Positions 2,100 to 52,362 of a stretch of 64,000 bases of DNA are shown piece by piece. Below the pieces are notes generated by a model. That model had not been told where the DNA came from and did no database searches. It was given only the letters and a program-made list of their open reading frames with translations. Position 1 is the first letter of the stretch; every line of letters starts with the position of its first letter. The position numbers and the translations under genes are program-made. Source of the DNA: Candidatus Omnitrophota bacterium (GTDB lineage Bacteria; Omnitrophota; Gorgyraeia; Zapsychrales; Fredricksoniimonadaceae); contig JADFYI010000001.1 in assembly GCA_015233145.1 (NCBI GenBank), forward strand, positions 15,345 through 79,344. The letters run 5' to 3'.

Positions 2100-3371
2100 A
2101 TGTTAGATCTTAAGTTTATTCGGGATAATGTTCAAGCCGTCCAAAAAGGCCTCGCTGCCAAGAACGCCAGGATCACTCTTGATGAGCTTCTGGCGCTGGA
2201 TGAAGAGCGCCGTAAGATTTCCATGAAAGCCGATGAGCTTCGCAGTAAAAAGAATGAAGCCAATGATGCCATATCTAAGCTCCTCAAAGAAAAGAAAGAC
2301 CCCAAAGACACGATTGCGTCCATGAAATCCATTGCCACAGACATCGATGCCTTGGAGCCGAAAATAAGAGAGCTGGATGAAAAAATTACCAATATTCTTC
2401 TTTTTATCCCCAACCTTCCGTATGCGTCGGTTCCCGTGGGCGGGCCTGAAAACAACAGGGAAGTCCGTTCTTGGGGCCAGATGCGTAAATTTGATTTTAA
2501 GCCCAAGGATCATATTGCCCTGGCAGAATCCCTTGATATGATCGATTTCAAACGCGCCACCAAAATCAGCGGCGCGAATTTTATTCTTTATAAGAAGGCT
2601 GGCGCACTTTTGGAACGCGCGCTTATCAATTTCATGTTGGATTTGCATACCCGGGAACATGGGTATATAGAAGTTTTTCCTCCGGTCTTGGTCAATGCCG
2701 CGTCCATGACCGGCACAGGACAGCTCCCTAAGATGAAAGATGATATGTATTATCTGGCAGGGGATGACCTTTACCTTATTCCTACGGCCGAGGTTCCTGT
2801 CACGAATATTTATCGTGATGAGATCCTGGATGAAAAAGACCTTCCCATCTATCACACTGCGTATTCTGATTGTTTCCGCAGGGAAGCTGGTTCTTATGGC
2901 AAGGATACCCGGGGGCTCATGCGTGTGCATCAGTTTAACAAGGTGGAGCTGGTCAAGTTTGTAAAGCCTGAAACATCCTATGACGAGCTTGAAAAACTTG
3001 TGAATAATGCGGAAAAGGTTTTTCAACTTTTAAATATTCCGTACCGCGTGCTTGAGCTGGCCGCGGGGGATATGAGTTTTGCCGCTGCCAAATGCTATGA
3101 CCTTGAGGTTTTTGCTCCGGGCCTGGATAAGTGGCTTGAGGCGTCAAGCTGTTCGAATTTCGAGGATTTTCAGGCCAGGCGCGCAGGCATTCGTTACAAG
3201 GGCAAAGACATGAAAAAACCTGCCTTTGTGCATACCTTAAACGGCTCAGGTGTTGCGACTCCAAGGACAGTGGTGGCCATTATGGAGAATTACCAACAGG
3301 CCGACGGCACAATTGAAGTGCCCCAGGTTTTAAGGCCCTATATGAACGGCCTTGCCGTGATTAAAAAATAG
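2100..3371 (+). CDS. serS: seryl-tRNA synthetase
   Basis: N-terminal coiled-coil arm ([10 protein letters not shown]...). Class II motifs [26 protein letters not shown] and [18 protein letters not shown]. Confidence 0.97.
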
Positions 3372-3383
3372 AGAGGGAGGAAC

Positions 3384-3980
3384 ATGAAGGATACTCTTTT
3401 TTTAATTCTTAAATTTGTTTTTGCGCTCATTATTCTTCCGGTTGTGGTGGCATTGACTTTTGCCTTTCAAAATGAGCTTGCGACTTTTGAACCTGCGCTT
3501 CGCCATACATTATGGCAGGGCATGGTAACGTATGTCCTTCTTCGCTTTTTTGTTTATGACTTCAGCGCAGTCTATGCCTTTGGCCAGGGGATCGTGACAT
3601 CTGTTTTTCAGTTTTTGAAGCCTTTGGTGAATGCGGCACCGTATGTTTTGCCGATTTATACCATCCTTGTTCTTTTGGTTTATGCCGTAATTTCTGTCAT
3701 GGGGAAACTTTCAGGATATGAGAGCGTTTTTATTTTTCTTTTTGCGTTTACGTTTACCATGCATATTGTCCTGACCGCCCAGGACCTTTACAAGAAGGAT
3801 TCCATCGCCGGGAAGCCGAATTACTTTTTCAGCATGATTTTGGTGTATATTTTTGATGTTTTTTTCATGGCACTTCTTATGAGCCTGATTCTCAAAGGCT
3901 TTTCATTTACCCATTTCTTCCAGGGGTTGACCGGCACATCCGCCGACATTTATCGGATGATATTTAAACAGCTTTTTTAG
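3384..3980 (+). CDS. hypothetical integral membrane protein (about 5-6 TM)
   Basis: ORF with a GGGAGG Shine-Dalgarno sequence. Hydrophobic segments run throughout and no family was recognised. Confidence 0.55.
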   Translation: MKDTLFLILKFVFALIILPVVVALTFAFQNELATFEPALRHTLWQGMVTYVLLRFFVYDFSAVYAFGQGIVTSVFQFLKPLVNAAPYVLPIYTILVLLVYAVISVMGKLSGYESVFIFLFAFTFTMHIVLTAQDLYKKDSIAGKPNYFFSMILVYIFDVFFMALLMSLILKGFSFTHFFQGLTGTSADIYRMIFKQLF

Positions 3981-4025: not shown

Positions 4026-4040
4026 TACTTCGAAATTTTT

Positions 4041-4129
4041 GGAGAGATGCCTGAGTGGTTGAAAGGGACGGTCTCGAAAACCGTTATATCGGGTAACCGA
4101 TATCCAGGGTTCGAATCCCTGTCTCTCCG
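4041..4129 (+). tRNA. tRNA-Ser (anticodon CGA), no encoded CCA
   Basis: Manual cloverleaf: acceptor GGAGAGA/TCTCTCC+G, D stem CCT/AGG, anticodon stem ACGGT/ACCGT with loop CT-CGA-AA, long variable arm ATATCGG-GTAA-CCGATAT, T arm CAGGG-TTCGAAT-CCCTG. Confidence 0.92.
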
Positions 4130-4656: not shown

Positions 4657-5175
4657 ATGGCATTAATTCACTGTCCCGAATGCAATGAACAAATTAGCGA
4701 TAAAGCCTTGGCTTGCCCCAAATGCGGACATCCGAGAATGTCTCAATTGATGGGATGGCGGGCGTTAGGGTTTGAATGGAAAACCAAAGAAGAGGTTTTT
4801 GGCTGGCCGTTGATCCATATTGCGGTTGGATTTGACAAGAAAACAGGGCGGTTGGCGGTTGCGCGAGGCATTATTGCCATTGGGCAGTTTGGGATAGGCG
4901 TTATTACTCTTGCTCAATTCGGGGTCGGACTGTTATTTGGATTAGGACAGTTTGTCGCGGGTTTTTGTGTGATCGGCCAATTTGCATTTGGCATTTTTTT
5001 CGGTTTGGGGCAAATTGCCACGGGAATGACAGCCATAGGGCAGTTTGGTTTTGGGCAGTATGTCCGCGCCATGGCGGGAATCGGCCAGCATTTATGGACA
5101 ATGAAGATCAAAGATCCTGAGGCCGTTGAACATTTTAGAAAGTTTTTTGATGTTTTAAAGCTTCATGCAGGTTGA
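4657..5175 (+). CDS. zinc-ribbon protein with a C-terminal glycine-rich GQF-repeat membrane region
   Basis: N-terminal CPECNEQISDKALACPKCGHP (CxxC-x13-CxxC). It is followed by six or more iterations of (I/L)GQF(G/A/V)xG within hydrophobic sequence. Confidence 0.7.
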   Translation: MALIHCPECNEQISDKALACPKCGHPRMSQLMGWRALGFEWKTKEEVFGWPLIHIAVGFDKKTGRLAVARGIIAIGQFGIGVITLAQFGVGLLFGLGQFVAGFCVIGQFAFGIFFGLGQIATGMTAIGQFGFGQYVRAMAGIGQHLWTMKIKDPEAVEHFRKFFDVLKLHAG

Positions 5176-5186
5176 ATTTTGAGTTA
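5142..5186 (+). repeat. 45-bp direct repeat, copy 1 (3' end and stop of the 4657..5175 gene)
   Basis: GTTTTTTGATGTTTTAAAGCTTCATGCAGGTTGAATTTTGAGTTA matches 6554..6598 at 43 of 45 positions. Confidence 0.9.
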
Positions 5187-5189
5187 GCC

Positions 5190-6368
5190 TCACAGAAGGT
5201 TACAGCCTTGAGAAAATAGCAGGGCATAAAAGATCAAGCCAGCGGTCATGAGGAAAGTCAAAACAATATCCACTGATTTGTTTTTTGAAAGCACTGCCAT
5301 GGATAAAAAGAGCGGGAAGACCGTTGACATGTGCCGGGCACAACTCAATAACCAAAAGATGGAATAAATATAGAAAATGAAAGAAAGAGAATAAATAACA
5401 TATGAAAGACGTACTCGTTTCATAGTTATAAAAATTAAAATTAAAGCCATGAAAAAAGAAACCAGTTGTGGGCCCCAAAGAACAAGACTATCAATGGATT
5501 TATCAATGAATGTCCTGTTTATCAAGTCTTTGATATTATCCATGATTGGAATATAATGAACATACCATTGCGTCTTCTTGAAATATATGAATTTCCACCA
5601 ATCGTCAAATATCAGTTTATTAATAAGCAGATAAATAAAAACCCCTAGACTCAGCCCCAATACAACGAAACTTCTATTGAACAGGTCTTTTGCCCAAGGC
5701 CCATAAAGTTTATTTTTTATTATTTCTAGAATATTGACTTCCTGCATATATTCCACAATGAGTATAATTCCTAAAAAAGGCCCCGTATTAGGACGGGTCA
5801 ACACGGCCATCATCGCAAGAATTCCAGAGTAAACCCAGGCTTTCGTTCTCAGGAAATAAGTCGCCCCCACAAATAAAGCCAGAAACAGGCCCTCGCTAAA
5901 TGTGATACTGAGGAAAAAAGAAAAAGGATATACCAATAAATATTTCACTGCACGCCAGGCCGTGTCTGAGTCATAGTCTAAGGACGCCAGCTTGTATAAA
6001 AATAATCCTCCAATAATAAGACTTAGGTTAGATACCAGCAGGCCTGCCAGGAAAAGGTCATGAACTAAGCCGCCAAGAAATCTTATAAACAGAGGGTACA
6101 GGGGGCCAAAAACAATGAGGGACTGCCTATCAACAGGGGCAGATGCGGGCGGATATCCTTCCTGGGCAATAGAAAGATAATGGTAAGAATCCCAATGGTT
6201 CCAAAGTCCGTTCATGGATGGCCAAAAAGGATCTATCTTGTGCTGAAAAAAGATCAAACCAGCATAGGCTGTAAAGAAAATTATCAGGCGTGAAGCAATA
6301 ACAATCAGCGCAATAGAACCTAATATTTTTAAGTCGGCTTTGTGTTTTTGAATGATTTCTTGTATCAT
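5190..6368 (-). CDS. polytopic membrane glycosyltransferase candidate (GT-C fold, PIG-V / mannosyltransferase-2-like)
   Basis: 392-aa ORF with about 10 TM segments. It has WNHWDSYHYLSIAQEGYPP after TM1, resembling the WD..WY..IA..GY loop of PIG-V-type GT-C enzymes. The gene is visibly AT-richer than its neighbours. Confidence 0.6.
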   Translation of the reverse strand: MIQEIIQKHKADLKILGSIALIVIASRLIIFFTAYAGLIFFQHKIDPFWPSMNGLWNHWDSYHYLSIAQEGYPPASAPVDRQSLIVFGPLYPLFIRFLGGLVHDLFLAGLLVSNLSLIIGGLFLYKLASLDYDSDTAWRAVKYLLVYPFSFFLSITFSEGLFLALFVGATYFLRTKAWVYSGILAMMAVLTRPNTGPFLGIILIVEYMQEVNILEIIKNKLYGPWAKDLFNRSFVVLGLSLGVFIYLLINKLIFDDWWKFIYFKKTQWYVHYIPIMDNIKDLINRTFIDKSIDSLVLWGPQLVSFFMALILIFITMKRVRLSYVIYSLSFIFYIYSIFWLLSCARHMSTVFPLFLSMAVLSKNKSVDIVLTFLMTAGLIFYALLFSQGCNLL

Positions 6369-6422: not shown

Positions 6423-6587
6423 ATTATAACACAACAATCCATTTTATGCCCCTTTTATGTGGTCTCCGGCGCGGCATCGCGTATCTCGCGTTATCCGACG
6501 AGAGAATATGCCTTCTGCAGGGCTGATGAATCCGTATGCAAAGATGCCGAAGGGTTTTTTGATATTTTAAAGCTTCATGCGGGTTGA
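6423..6587 (+). pseudogene. start-less relic of a paralogue of the 4657..5175 gene (3' end only)
   Basis: The open frame ends ...CKDAEGFFDILKLHAG*, against ...KDPEAVEHFRKFFDVLKLHAG* for the intact gene. No ATG or Shine-Dalgarno sequence was found, and similarity is confined to about the last 15 codons. Confidence 0.35.
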
Positions 6588-6598
6588 ATTTTGAGTTA
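6554..6598 (+). repeat. 45-bp direct repeat, copy 2
   Basis: GTTTTTTGATATTTTAAAGCTTCATGCGGGTTGAATTTTGAGTTA matches 5142..5186 at 43 of 45 positions. Confidence 0.9.
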
Positions 6599-6684: not shown

Positions 6685-6845
6685 GAGACATCTGTTTGCC
6701 GTCAAGCTGTAAGCTTGTCGATGCCAACAGATGTCTCCAAAAATTCTGTAGAAAAAGACATTGAGGAAACTCCAGTCTGCCCGTCAAACTGATGGTTTGT
6801 CGTGGCAGACTGGAGTCTCCAAAAATGTCGGAGACATTTTTGGAG
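6685..6845 (+). repeat. two tandem hairpin units plus a tRNA-leader hairpin
   Basis: Unit A has outer stem 6685-6696/6726-6737 (12 bp) and inner stem 6703-6708/6712-6717. Unit B has outer stem 6769-6781/6804-6816 (13 bp) and inner stem 6785-6789/6795-6799. Both contain CCGTCAARCTG and TTGTCG, and both end in GTCTCCAAAAAT. A third hairpin, CTCCAAAAATGTC-GGA-GACATTTTTGGAG (6817-6845), overlaps tRNA nt 1-4. Confidence 0.75.
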
Positions 6846-6929
6846 AGGTGGCTGAGCGGCCGAAAGCGGCGGTCTTGAAAACCGTTGACCCGCAAGGGTC
6901 CGTGAGTTCGAATCTCACCCTCTCCGCCA
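6842..6929 (+). tRNA. tRNA-Ser (anticodon UGA), CCA encoded
   Basis: Acceptor GGAGAGG/CCTCTCC+G+CCA, D stem GCT/AGC, anticodon stem GCGGT/ACCGT with loop CT-TGA-AA, long variable arm, T arm GTGAG-TTCGAAT-CTCAC. Confidence 0.92.
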
Positions 6930-22446: not shown

Positions 22447-23763
22447 ATGAAATACGTGTTTCTTCAAACTTTTGGGTGCCAGATGAACGAGTACGACAGC
22501 GAGCTTGTGCGTTCGATTCTTGAAGACGCAGGGTATTCGTTTGCCGAGGCTGAAGAGGATGCCGATATTATTATGCTGAATACTTGTTCAGTCCGGGAGA
22601 ACGCGCATCGCAAGGTTTTTGGCTATATTCATGAGATTCGTCATCGCCGTCAAGGCAAGCCCGTGTTAATCGGTATTTTGGGCTGTATGGCGACCGGGCT
22701 TCGGGATGAGCTTTTGGCAGATAAGAAACTGGCTCTGGATTTTGTGGTGGGGCCGGACAGTTACAAGCGCCTGCCCGAGATTCTGAAAAACGTTCAGGAT
22801 GATCATGCCAGGGGCTATGATGTCACGCTTTCAGAATTTGAAACCTATTCGGATGTTGATCCCACCCGGGTCAGCGGTGTGAATGCCTGGGTTGCGGTCA
22901 TGCGCGGGTGCAATAATTTTTGCGCGTTTTGCATTGTGCCTTATACCCGGGGGCGTGAGCGCAGCCGTTCTGTGGCCAATGTTCTTGGGGAAGTCAAGCG
23001 TTTGGCAGATGAAGGTTTTCAGCAGGTCACGCTTTTAGGCCAGAATGTGAATTCTTATCATCATGAATCAGAGGATTTTGCCGCGCTTCTCGATGCGGTT
23101 TCTAAGATTGAGGGAATCCGCCGTATTCGCTTTACCTCACCACACCCTAAGGATTTTCCTCAAAGCCTGATTAAGGTCGTGGCTGAGAATCCCAAGGTTT
23201 GTAAACAGATTCATCTGCCGCTTCAGGCTGGGAATGACCGGGTTCTCGAACTCATGAATCGCAGCTATACGGGTAAGGAGTTCAGGGATTTAGTGACTAA
23301 TATTCGTAAGGCTTGCCCCAAGATTGCGCTCACCACAGATGTGATTGTTGGATTTCCCACAGAAACCGATGCCGAGTTTGAAGATACGTATCGCGTAATG
23401 AGGGAAGTTGAGTTTGATTCTGCGTTTATGTTCAAGTATTCGCCTCGCCCTAAGACCATGGCGGCGAGGAAGTTAAAAGATGATGTTTCAGAACTTAAGA
23501 AGACTGCGCGTATTGTGAAGCTGAATATCCTTCAAACCGCTATTTCTCTTAAGAAAAACAAGGCCCTGGTAGGTGATATTCAGGAAATTTTGATGGAGCA
23601 GGCTGGAAAGATCAAGGCTGGCTCTGCTTATGGCCGTAATGATGCGAATAAGATCGTGACCTTGCCTCAGGGTGAGTTTAAGCCTGGCCAATGGGTCCAG
23701 GCCCGGATTGTCCGCGCCACGCCACATCAGTTGAAAGGGGAATTGAATTCCCCGACAAATTGA
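22447..23763 (+). CDS. miaB: tRNA-i6A37 methylthiotransferase
   Basis: N-terminal FLQTFGCQMNEYDSE, radical-SAM CNNFCAFC, C-terminal TRAM domain. Confidence 0.95.
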   Translation: MKYVFLQTFGCQMNEYDSELVRSILEDAGYSFAEAEEDADIIMLNTCSVRENAHRKVFGYIHEIRHRRQGKPVLIGILGCMATGLRDELLADKKLALDFVVGPDSYKRLPEILKNVQDDHARGYDVTLSEFETYSDVDPTRVSGVNAWVAVMRGCNNFCAFCIVPYTRGRERSRSVANVLGEVKRLADEGFQQVTLLGQNVNSYHHESEDFAALLDAVSKIEGIRRIRFTSPHPKDFPQSLIKVVAENPKVCKQIHLPLQAGNDRVLELMNRSYTGKEFRDLVTNIRKACPKIALTTDVIVGFPTETDAEFEDTYRVMREVEFDSAFMFKYSPRPKTMAARKLKDDVSELKKTARIVKLNILQTAISLKKNKALVGDIQEILMEQAGKIKAGSAYGRNDANKIVTLPQGEFKPGQWVQARIVRATPHQLKGELNSPTN

Positions 23764-23818
23764 TATATAGTATCCAAAATCATTATTATGATGATTTTTT
23801 GAGAATTTTAGCGTATTG

Positions 23819-23950
23819 GAGAGCCGTCCGGTGCATGTCAGTCGCTCGGACAGTCCTCGTTTCGCTGCCAAGGTTGGAATCATAGTTTTTGATTGTTTGT
23901 GGAGCAGCTCACTGCGGAACTCGCTTGGTGACATGCCCCCTCCGGCTCTC
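23819..23950 (+). repeat. intergenic repeat, copy 1: 100-nt core (23835-23934) inside the stem GAGAGCCG/CGGCTCTC
   Basis: The core is 89/100 identical, without indels, to 31129-31228. The core ends are ATGTCA/TGACAT. Confidence 0.9.
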
Positions 23951-31109: not shown

Positions 31110-31246
31110 GCAGGGTGACCTTTGGGACATGTCAGTCGCTCGGACAGTCCTCACTTCGCCGCCAAGTTTGGAATTATAGGTTTTGAATATTTGTGGAGCG
31201 GCTCGTTGCGGAACTCGCTTGGTGACATATCCCAAAGGTTCCCTGC
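31110..31246 (+). repeat. intergenic repeat, copy 2: 100-nt core (31129-31228) inside the stem GCAGGGTGACCTTTGGGA/TCCCAAAGGTTCCCTGC
   Basis: Same core as 23835-23934 and same orientation. The flanking inverted repeat has a different sequence. Confidence 0.9.
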
Positions 31247-51170: not shown

Positions 51171-51186
51171 GAGGAGCGGTTGCTTT

Positions 51187-52362
51187 ATGAAGAAAGTTGT
51201 TCTTGCTTATTCCGGCGGGTTGGATACGTCGTGCATTATTCCGTGGCTCAAGGATCGCGGATATGAAATCATTGCCGTGATCGGCGATGTCGGCCAGGGG
51301 GATGATTTTAATAAAGTCAAGGCCAAGGCCATCAAGTCCGGTGCTGTGAAGGCGTATTGTCTGGATTTAAAAAAAGAACTGATTGAGGACTTTGCTTTCC
51401 CTGCGCTCAAGGCCGGGGCCCTTTATGAGGGGAAATATAACCTGGCGTGCGCGTTGTCGCGCCCGTTGATTGCCTATCACCAGGTGCTTGTGGCGCGTCA
51501 AGAAAAGGCTGACGGCCTGGTGCACGGCTGCACGGGAAAAGGCAACGACCAGGTCCGTTTTGAAGTGACCTACAGGTTAATGGCGCCCAAGATGGAAGTG
51601 ATCGCCCCTGTGCGTGGCTGGGAATTCAAGTCTCGCGACGAAGAGATTGATTATGCCAGGGCCAAGGGGATTCCTGTGACCGCAACGAAAAAGAGCCCGT
51701 ACAGCATTGATACCAATGTTTATGGCCGTGCCATGGAAAGCGGTGTTCTTGAAGATCCTATGGTCGAGCCGCCCAAAGATATTTTTTATATGACCGAAGA
51801 CCCCCAGAAGGCACCCCGTAAGCCTGGTTATGTGGAGATTGAATTCCTGAAAGGAATTCCCGTGGCTGTGAATGGGAAAAAGATGGCGCCGTTGCCTCTG
51901 GTTCTTAAATTAAATGAGATTGCAGGCAGGCACGGGGTTGGCCGTGTTGACATGATTGAAAACCGGCTGGTGGGGATCAAGTCGCGCGAACTTTATGAGA
52001 ACCCGGCAGGCACGGTGCTCCATTTGGGGATTCGTGAAATTGAAAGCCTGGTGCTTGACCGTGACAGCCTGCGTTTTAAAGAAATTTTATCCCAGAAATA
52101 CGCTGAGCTGACCTATAACGGGCTTTGGTGGACGCCGTTGAAGTCGCAGATGGACGCCTTTTTTAATAAGTATCATGAGCATACGACGGGTACTGTCCGC
52201 ATCAAGCTTTATAAAGGGAATGCCATGGTCGTGGGGCGCAGGTCTCCCCATTCCCGTTATAGCGAGAAGATGGCCACCTATGGCAAAGGAGATAAGTTCG
52301 ACCAGTCACTGGCAGAGGGTTTTATCAAGCTGTGGACTGTGCCGTTTCAGAAGCATCAATGA
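51187..52362 (+). CDS. argG: argininosuccinate synthase
   Basis: VVLAYSGGLDTS PP-loop, HGCTGKGNDQVRFE and GRVDMIENRLVGIKSRE. Confidence 0.96.
   Translation: MKKVVLAYSGGLDTSCIIPWLKDRGYEIIAVIGDVGQGDDFNKVKAKAIKSGAVKAYCLDLKKELIEDFAFPALKAGALYEGKYNLACALSRPLIAYHQVLVARQEKADGLVHGCTGKGNDQVRFEVTYRLMAPKMEVIAPVRGWEFKSRDEEIDYARAKGIPVTATKKSPYSIDTNVYGRAMESGVLEDPMVEPPKDIFYMTEDPQKAPRKPGYVEIEFLKGIPVAVNGKKMAPLPLVLKLNEIAGRHGVGRVDMIENRLVGIKSRELYENPAGTVLHLGIREIESLVLDRDSLRFKEILSQKYAELTYNGLWWTPLKSQMDAFFNKYHEHTTGTVRIKLYKGNAMVVGRRSPHSRYSEKMATYGKGDKFDQSLAEGFIKLWTVPFQKHQ

Follow-up and report, generated by a model that had tools for sequence, protein, structure and literature searches.

Within the 64,000 nucleotides of Candidatus Omnitrophota DNA analyzed here (the window), two related hairpin elements were observed, both intergenic and both in the same orientation as the flanking + strand genes. 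Copy 1 (23819..23950, + strand) is located in the miaB-nadA spacer. Copy 2 (31110..31246, + strand) is located between sufC and the next gene of the SUFBD family, starting 8 nt past the stop codon of sufC and leaving 29 nt up to the next ORF. SufC of the window is identical to an NCBI protein labelled Candidatus Omnitrophica, which assigns the window to a MAG of that group. Alignment of the cores at 23835-23934 and 31129-31228 required no gaps and gave an identity of 89/100, the 11 differences falling on core positions 25, 26, 32, 39, 47, 52, 59, 61, 72, 77 and 78. Six of these 11 differences represent three compensated pairs, namely 25/78, 26/77 and 32/72, which read G-C, T-A and T-A in copy 1 and A-T, C-G and C-G in copy 2. 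An earlier inspection of this DNA by its letters only (the sequence-only reading) had described two gapless 100-nt cores with three compensated pairs, co-oriented with their neighbouring genes, and was borne out on these points. In 200,000 simulations placing 11 random substitutions on the 27-pair fold, at least three double-compensated pairs arose with a frequency of 7e-5. Exactly two copies were found in the window by BLAST, a repeat finder and covariance model R1 with filters off. The covariance model (CM) matched 23830-23940 in copy 1 and 31124-31234 in copy 2 with 76.7 bits each and E-values of about 9e-19 (8.6e-19 and 9e-19, respectively), the next best match having an E-value of 0.86.

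In copy 1, the copy-specific distal 5' arm GAGAGCCG (23819..23826, +) pairs with the distal 3' arm CGGCTCTC (23943..23950, +). The proximal arms GCATGTCA (23833..23840, +) and TGACATGC (23929..23936, +) likewise pair with each other and include the termini ATGTCA/TGACAT, which are common to copy 2. Further inwards, an invariant 5' block GCTCGGACAGTCCTCG (23844..23859, +) and an invariant 3' block CTGCGGAACTCGC (23912..23924, +) were observed, both of which recur identically or nearly so in about 50 copies. Between them lies a variable inner hairpin, P2 (23859..23912, +), comprising the compensated pairs 23859/23912, 23860/23911 and 23866/23906. In copy 2, the copy-specific distal 5' arm GCAGGG-TG-ACCTTTGGGA (31110..31127, +) pairs with the distal 3' arm TCCCAAAGGT-T-CCCTGC (31230..31246, +). 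Its 5' block GCTCGGACAGTCCTCA (31138..31153, +) ends in an A with T31206 as partner, and the inner hairpin (31153..31206, +) is followed by the 3' block TTGCGGAACTCGC (31206..31218, +). An outer stem of different sequence around each copy had been placed at precisely these positions by the sequence-only reading. For core positions 24-26, the MFE fold of the single sequence uses another register than the one originally suggested. The original register is supported by the family alignment, with column 25/78 showing GC 27, AU 2 and GU 2 and column 26/77 showing CG 22, GC 6 and UA 1, as well as by the paired fraction given below, and is therefore regarded as right.

Three Omnitrophota relatives featuring the same gene order (SufC 84–86% identical; fetched loci of 12–21 kb each) were compared with the window at the two spacers, as the sequence-only reading had advised, and both sites proved to be empty. 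The miaB-nadA spacer comprises 259 nt in the window versus 41, 84 and 88 nt in the relatives, and the spacer downstream of sufC comprises 174 nt versus 67 nt, 11 nt and an overlap. Moreover, the covariance model detected no copy anywhere in the three relatives' fetched loci. A further polymorphic site was observed in Bdellovibrio, where HCB117 and s4 carry a copy that faces polA just past a lipoprotein gene and three other genomes lack it, the lipoprotein-polA spacer measuring 426 nt with the element versus 84, 10 and 6 nt without it. The position of the element is conserved in two Bdellovibrio species and in L020/L037. No pre-existing hairpin matching the arms was present in the relatives at the empty sites (the two window sites and the Bdellovibrio site).

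One genome per species was scanned using two short anchors taken from the core. This genome scan yielded 22 loci, 21 of which clearly represent the same element, in records of eight phyla, namely Omnitrophota, Bdellovibrionota, Planctomycetota, Fibrobacterota, Actinomycetota, Gemmatimonadota, Latescibacterota and Myxococcota. Among the carriers are Hallerella (Fibrobacterota), Bdellovibrio including complete genomes of isolates, Phycisphaeraceae, Planctomycetales, Coriobacteriia, Longimicrobiales, Latescibacterota, Omnitrophota and Haliangiales. A scan of metagenomes, for which the anchors comprised 21 bases only, added about 27 copies along with nine obvious chance matches in coding DNA, and bases left free in the search pattern were also conserved. 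In total, about 50 copies beyond the window were obtained from the eight phyla and from unassigned metagenome contigs, with about 1–8 copies per genome under the search patterns used. Since the conserved blocks were partly forced by these patterns, the spread of variants is underestimated. The window copies are members of a low-copy family that is distributed patchily across phyla.

The family plan comprises, in 5' to 3' direction, a P1 arm, the block GCTCGGACAGTCCTCG, the variable inner segment P2, the block CTGCGGAACTCGC and the other P1 arm. P1 arms are 7–45 bp long, nearly perfect and different in sequence in every copy, and P2, with a length of 9–73 nt, is freely variable and usually forms a hairpin. 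The 5' and 3' blocks are non-complementary, lie on the same strand and are almost invariant across phyla. Together they account for about 29 bases and form an asymmetric bubble, to which the two strands contribute about 13 and 10 nt, the 5' block including the 9-bp palindrome GGACAGTCC. On the P1 side, the bubble is closed by the first two bases of the 5' block, which pair with the last two of the 3' block (G-C and C-G); the closing pair G1-C13' is switched to C-G in L037 and L050. The pair that closes P2 is mostly G-C; window copy 2 and L002 have A-U at this position, and L006 and L039 have G·U. In the 32-sequence alignment, 71.7% of the cells are paired in the named structure, versus 54% after shuffling and 38–47% with slid partners. 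Furthermore, pairing and covariation of P1, P2 and the closing pairs were above all 500 shuffles (0/500 reached the observed value). The Omnitrophota copies (window copies 1 and 2, L018 and L064) have the core and 7–10 bp of the proximal arm in common, the distal arm being locus-specific.

P1 and P2 contrast sharply in the way their pairing is kept. In 24 copies, the P1 arms comprise 487 Watson-Crick, four G·U, four A/C and 12 other pairs, and three of the four G·U pairs represent one inherited position. In the two copies of L038, located on one contig, the arms are only about 75% identical and every difference is mirrored, including a 1-nt indel. Likewise, the arms of orthologous Bdellovibrio copies are about 72% identical, with all differences compensated, partly in runs of three, and the non-coding flank of these orthologues is about 93–95% identical, i.e., arms and P2 change faster. 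Selection on an RNA helix neither mirrors indels nor avoids wobble pairs, whereas templating of one arm on the other does. The near-lack of G·U pairs and the mirrored 1-nt indel therefore suggest that P1 reflects upkeep of a palindrome at the DNA level and not RNA selection: the outer arms look like DNA inverted repeats, not like RNA helices under selection. The sequence-only reading had concluded that the fold is kept while the sequence is not and had taken this as the signature of a folded RNA or single-stranded DNA. The former holds for the paired parts of about 50 copies; compensatory change as proof of a selected RNA fold fails in the outer stems, considering 487 Watson-Crick versus four G·U pairs and the mirrored indel. 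Purifying selection on the blocks, as deduced from the Bdellovibrio orthologue pair, was withdrawn as well, since one change in 29 block bases corresponds to the neutral expectation given the identity of the non-coding flank.

For P2, family-weighted counting yielded 65 G·U pairs on the + strand versus 15 on the - strand, i.e., an about fourfold difference, the + strand being rich in G and T (G 940, C 727, T 645, A 336). In addition, TTCG occurs 41 times in P2 versus nine occurrences of CGAA, GCTTCGC is recurrent, and the shortest P2 consists of GGCTTCGCC alone. The prevalence of P2 wobble pairs on the + strand indicates that one particular strand is constrained to fold. This finding is in line with the folded single strand, either RNA or single-stranded DNA (ssDNA), put forward in the sequence-only reading. 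For the folding + strand, the sequence fits RNA and ssDNA alike.

Landing sites are diverse. Nested copies were identified in L008, L010, L019 and L060, each exactly at the P2 position of another copy, with the same orientation in L008 and L010 and the opposite orientation in L019 and L060. Pairs on the same contig are always convergent and inverted, one of them within a larger palindrome. Moreover, two copies reside in frame within protein-coding genes. The L051 copy lies in hypF, with the zinc fingers of the protein on one side and its YrdC domain on the other, and the L002 copy lies in antisense orientation in the linker of a TrpG-TrpD fusion ORF (trpGD). The peptides encoded by these two copies differ and are read from opposite strands. 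Since Pfam domains of one protein were found on both sides, the HypF insertion is no annotation artefact. The sequence-only reading had offered, as an alternative, a mobile mini-element that inserts into pre-existing hairpins. Its mobility is supported by the empty sites, the nesting and the in-gene copies; hairpins as targets apply to nesting only and not to the window and Bdellovibrio sites.

In clear tandem contexts, seven copies are co-oriented with the flanking genes and three anti-oriented; antisense to the flanking genes are L053, L064 and the inner L019 copy. GC skew on the element strand is positive at 25 loci and negative at 12, and a 2:1 bias towards the coding, G-rich strand was observed. 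In four complete genomes, with the origin assumed at position 1, the element strand is leading in two cases and lagging in three. Direct repeats across the junction were measured in the 36 copies whose arm ends are clear. None (0 nt) was present in 19 of them, and the longest had 1 nt in 10 copies, 2 nt in five and 3 nt in two; thus, no target-site duplication of fixed length was observed. The motif CGCTCGG...CGCTYGG, considered as a 7-nt target-site duplication, was rejected as not general, the Bdellovibrio and L002 copies being devoid of it. The flanks outside the arms share no motif, the window copies being preceded by GGTG and GGGA.

At annotated loci, flanking genes are mostly ordinary housekeeping genes (gene calls in GC-rich loci being approximate), and all-versus-all clustering of locus ORFs revealed no recurring neighbour protein family. 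No transposase was found among the 10 window ORFs tested. The gene between the two inverted copies of L037 encodes a MopE-like protein and not a transposase, and no similarity to transposases was obtained for the ORFs that separate the L017 copies or adjoin the L038 pair. Where a block matched on its own (first 26 loci and window), the match belonged to a nested or tandem partial copy or was chance-like. In 300 kb scanned by the covariance model, decayed copies were few, which was also counted against a mobile element, and the only degenerate copies are outer members of nested pairs. The window copies ride along as passengers in the leader of nadA and in the suf operon, and nothing suggests that they regulate the adjacent genes.

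Searching the whole window against Rfam 15 at the gathering threshold returned two tRNAs only. For copy 1, E-values up to 10 gave only noise of 10–11 bits, and at ten carrier loci nothing was obtained at the element. The core thus matches no Rfam family, in line with the sequence-only reading, which had not recognised it as a known ncRNA class. Literature text searches for either block in DNA and RNA form and on both strands retrieved only primers and unrelated sequences, and keyword searches (MITE, REP, hairpin-loop insertion) retrieved REP/REPIN, MITE and RPE papers, none of which describes an element with this core. Three scans of viral contigs gave only chance matches in coding sequence, and a Roseomonas match from a PLSDB blast of the minimal core was rejected, being weak and devoid of the 3' block. 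As far as checked in Rfam 15 and by literature searches, the family is undescribed as an RNA or a repeat.

Several particular candidates were rejected. An intrinsic terminator does not apply, as no T-run directly follows the hairpin in the window (AAAGAGG 3' of the arms in copy 1, TTTCTAAAC in copy 2) and a run of at least four T within 60 nt after the element was found in 10/49 copies overall. Small end hairpins inside each block were dismissed because C13' covaries with G1 (L037) and not with G3'. Inspection against known motifs was performed for hairpin-ribozyme loop A (ACAGUC resemblance), the K-turn, the sarcin-ricin motif, the IRE, the T-box antiterminator bulge, sigma-54 or ECF promoters, the dif site and the Tn3 end; in these cases, partner bases or required pairings are missing.

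Among described repeats, RPEs of Rickettsia are palindromic and occur in intergenic regions as well as in frame within coding sequences, so that the encoded proteins gain a peptide segment, and insertion into one another has been reported for pneumococcal BOX, RUP and SPRITE (PMC10969869). The present family resembles RPEs in that both are palindromic 100–150 bp repeats without a known transposase, located between genes and in frame in genes. It is set apart from them by description, as RPEs possess a family-wide sequence and a conserved peptide, whereas here 29 central bases are kept across eight phyla, and arms and peptide vary. With REPINs it shares intergenic hairpin repeats, presumed ssDNA action, vertical persistence at orthologous sites, inverted pairs and a factor encoded elsewhere. 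REP/REPIN systems are characterized by a conserved REP of 20–40 nt that carries GTAG or CGTC as its head at the foot of the hairpin and by a single-copy RAYT (Y1 transposase). In the present family, GTAG...CTAC heads were found in 1/49 copies, and no RAYT gene was detected among the scanned ORFs (64 kb of this genome; loci of 1–21 kb from others). Furthermore, the conserved parts of REPINs are two inverted, paired ends, whereas here they are unpaired, central and on one strand, with pairing provided by the variable arms instead.

Bacterial MITEs (Correia, ERIC, BOX/RUP/SPRITE) are likewise small, non-autonomous and hairpin-forming, show presence/absence polymorphism and insert into one another. 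Presence/absence polymorphism and several copies per genome (2–8 per genome or metagenome family) are MITE-like traits also present in this family. Each MITE family is recognised by its own terminal inverted repeats and by a target-site duplication of fixed length, and its origin can be traced to an IS. Here, in contrast, the terminal repeats are the variable part, a fixed duplication is lacking and no parent IS was found in the window and the fetched loci. A DDE-type MITE was rejected, as the arms differ within one genome (window copies; L038 A and B) as well as between genomes, without a fixed duplication. The combination of identical outer repeats and target-site duplications, by which the sequence-only reading would have recognized an ordinary MITE, was looked for and did not appear. 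Miniature IS200/IS605 elements (PATEs) resemble this family in their ends, which are asymmetric, not inverted and located on one strand, in lacking a target-site duplication, and in that an ssDNA hairpin mechanism is presumed. They differ in that the present copies show no target tetranucleotide, no TnpA/TnpB gene nearby and no consistent replication-strand bias (four complete genomes, origin assumed at position 1). An IS200/IS605-derived element was rejected, since no conserved tetra- or pentanucleotide target is present 5' of the left end, and a lagging-strand mechanism of the IS200/IS605 style is weakened by the two leading and three lagging element strands (origin assumed). The closest described systems in behaviour are RPEs with respect to in-frame insertions, REPINs with respect to ssDNA hairpins, vertical persistence and inverted pairs, and BOX/RUP/SPRITE. 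The trait distinguishing the family from all of these is that the unpaired centre, not the paired ends, defines it, and that the same centre is found in eight phyla.

Based on these results, the element is probably a non-autonomous mobile palindromic element of the RPE, REPIN or MITE kind. This interpretation is favoured by the gain at empty sites, the nesting, the in-frame copies within genes, the occurrence in both orientations and the lack of a linked gene, five observations that fit a cis-regulatory RNA or a host DNA module poorly. Action through one folded single strand is a tentative proposal that may well prove incorrect. The acting strand would be the + strand as in the window, most likely as ssDNA exposed in replication or repair and less likely as a transcript. 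The arms may serve only as a clamp that brings the two blocks together into a bubble on this strand, and the bubble is probably the recognition site, being recognised or cut by a putative trans-acting factor. The arms may stay complementary because one is templated on the other, be it by fold-back synthesis, template switching or hairpin mismatch repair; alternatively, one arm may be re-synthesised from the other when the element moves. Such templating would explain why the arms change fast, in blocks and with mirrored indels, and yet remain perfect. The shared core and proximal arm of the Omnitrophota copies, combined with their locus-specific distal arms, would fit outward extension of the palindrome after insertion or fold-back synthesis.

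Several points count against a mobile element. No mobilising enzyme or autonomous parent was found in the window and the fetched loci, no transposition intermediate is known, and the low copy number (about 1–8 per genome) is unusual for MITEs. Transposon ends normally differ between IS families and genera, and the cross-phylum invariant blocks resemble a ribozyme or aptamer core more than transposon ends. A structured RNA motif is judged unlikely but remains a serious rival. Its functional part would be the invariant asymmetric loop between two variable helices, acting, for example, as a small ribozyme, an RNA-protein recognition module or a processing signal; the hairpin carrying it would be duplicated or transferred, with the long outer stem serving for processing of the RNase III type. 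Ribozymes and aptamers are typically recognised by loop bases that stay invariant between covarying helices, and this arrangement is found here for about 29 loop bases, including the exchange of G1-C13' for C-G in L037 and L050. The RNA motif is also supported by the + strand specificity of the G·U pairs in P2 (65 versus 15), the excess of TTCG over CGAA (41 versus nine) together with the recurrent GCTTCGC and the minimal P2 GGCTTCGCC, the 2:1 bias towards the coding, G-rich strand, the few decayed copies and the low copy number. However, no Rfam match was obtained even at E-values up to 10, the outer stem is almost free of G·U pairs, and a T-run follows only 10/49 copies. Moreover, copies occur antisense to flanking genes (L053, L064, inner L019) and in both orientations within ORFs, and neither a consistent position nor a gene association, as for a cis-regulator, is apparent. 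Since the flanks are unrelated, no conserved promoter is possible.

A site-specific recombination site folded from ssDNA, of the integron attC or CTX-phage attP hairpin type and used by a tyrosine recombinase, is very unlikely, even though recourse to a host recombinase such as XerC/D would make a dedicated gene unnecessary. As in attC sites, the fold is kept over the sequence, a central bubble is unpaired, the terminal structure is variable and one strand is used; a fixed target-site duplication is lacking, and the L019 copy is located directly 3' of a xerC/D-like gene. Nonetheless, the attC core sites R'' (RYYYAAC) and R' (GTTRRRY) were both present in 0/49 copies, the long outer arms have no attC counterpart, and inspection revealed no dif-like arm-spacer-arm arrangement. 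In addition, no integron, cassette or intI/attI context was found at any annotated locus, the xer neighbour is restricted to one family, and variation is concentrated in precisely those paired parts to which a recombinase would bind. The low copy number, the conserved position in two Bdellovibrio species and L020/L037, the palindrome GGACAGTCC in the 5' block and the mostly housekeeping neighbours could be ascribed to a chromosomal protein-binding or architectural DNA module of the BIME/RIP type, kept by the host, occasionally duplicated and not itself mobile. To our knowledge, no DNA-binding protein has one specificity across the eight phyla. The in-frame hypF and trpGD copies and the nested copies are hard to explain by such a module, empty sites exist in syntenic relatives, and the strand-specific wobble of P2 points to a single strand and not to duplex DNA, so that a host module is highly improbable.

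The occurrence of the same 29 bases in eight phyla points to a very conserved partner, either an enzyme or intrinsic chemistry. As a speculative extension, to which little probability is attached, these invariant bases might constitute the working centre of a single-strand machine, the bubble being catalytic itself (a small self-cleaving or self-ligating ribozyme or DNAzyme-like motif by which the hairpin would move) or hijacking a universally conserved host enzyme. If the latter were true, the element would spread across phyla without a transposase of its own. Since Bdellovibrio isolates carry the element, bench testing is possible. The family also represents a caution for the discovery of ncRNAs, since its outer stems show perfect compensatory changes and yet behave as inverted repeats of DNA do, without wobble pairs, with mirrored indels and with faster change than the neighbouring spacer. 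Covariation alone would misread such stems as RNA helices under selection. Finally, the element adds a peptide to HypF and TrpGD and resides in operons and 5' leaders, so that annotation, and possibly expression, is affected in lineages for which MAGs are the main source.

Among the annotated genes neighboring the element, those associated with translation were over-frequent, as observed at the fetched loci L006, L007, L011, L045 and L053, and also at L003, L038, L047, L048 and window positions 22447-23763. Genes encoding aminoacyl-tRNA synthetases (leuS, metG, tyrS, cysS and valS) accounted for five of roughly 75 annotated neighbors, approximately ten times the share expected if, by our own rough estimate, such genes make up about 0.7% of all genes. 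Further neighbors of the translation type were typA, lepA, frr, miaB and a gene encoding an RlmI-like methyltransferase. The placement of the element relative to these genes was inconsistent, since it was located either upstream or downstream and in varying orientation, and it therefore does not look like a leader.

Wherever two copies were found on the same contig, they were convergent and inverted. This applied to L017 (4701-6089), L038 (4424-4889), L030 (7300-8080), where the pair lies within a far larger palindrome, and L037 (1584-3497), where the copies flank a MopE-like gene that is missing from the syntenic locus L020. Moreover, the GC-rich element family from metagenome Ga0307509 (L041-L043, L047, L055, L056 and L065) adjoins short tandem repeats, among them (GGGGCGT)n and (CACCGC)n, and the start of the 5' block in its member L042 shows an 8-nt tandem duplication (GCTCGGAC). 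At L011, a locus on a Latescibacterota chromosome record, an isolated stretch at 2088-2446, about 1.6 kb from the element, corresponds to positions 47-390 of bacterial 16S rRNA; it could be either a piece of an rRNA gene or an artefact of the assembly.

Repeated sequences were also detected in the tRNA-gene region of the window. A 45-nt direct repeat (5142-5186 and 6554-6598, 96% identical) flanks an ORF of 392 amino acids on the minus strand (5190-6368), which showed a weak match to PMT_2 under the Pfam cut-off. ORF and repeats are situated between two long-arm tRNA genes, the 5' regions of which are likewise repeated (4032-4129 and 6833-6926). This arrangement resembles either a local duplication or a segment that was inserted at a tRNA gene. 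A cluster of hairpins, with arms at 6685-6699/6723-6737, 6765-6781/6804-6820 and 6816-6829/6833-6846, was noted together with a 46-nt repeat (6699-6744 and 6781-6826) at 6685-6846, upstream of the second tRNA gene. Elsewhere in the window, a stretch of about 1 kb (51171-52174) within a densely packed array of plus-strand genes harbors no ORF of at least 80 amino acids, and an Rfam search of this stretch returned no match.

In two syntenic Omnitrophota relatives, the position upstream of miaB differs in gene content: electron-transfer flavoprotein genes occupy it in the closest relative (L027-L029), and a gene for a large serine recombinase comprising Resolvase, Recombinase and Zn_ribbon_recom domains lies immediately 5' of miaB in L067 (131-1792). 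Upstream of nadA, the motif (T/G)ATATAGTA(T/A)C(C/T)CA was kept in the window (23764-23800) and in all three relatives (L027, 3183-3200; L067, about 3103-3125; L068, about 3510-3530). This conserved motif probably represents the nadA promoter or an operator, and in the window a copy of the element has inserted between it and the nadA start codon.
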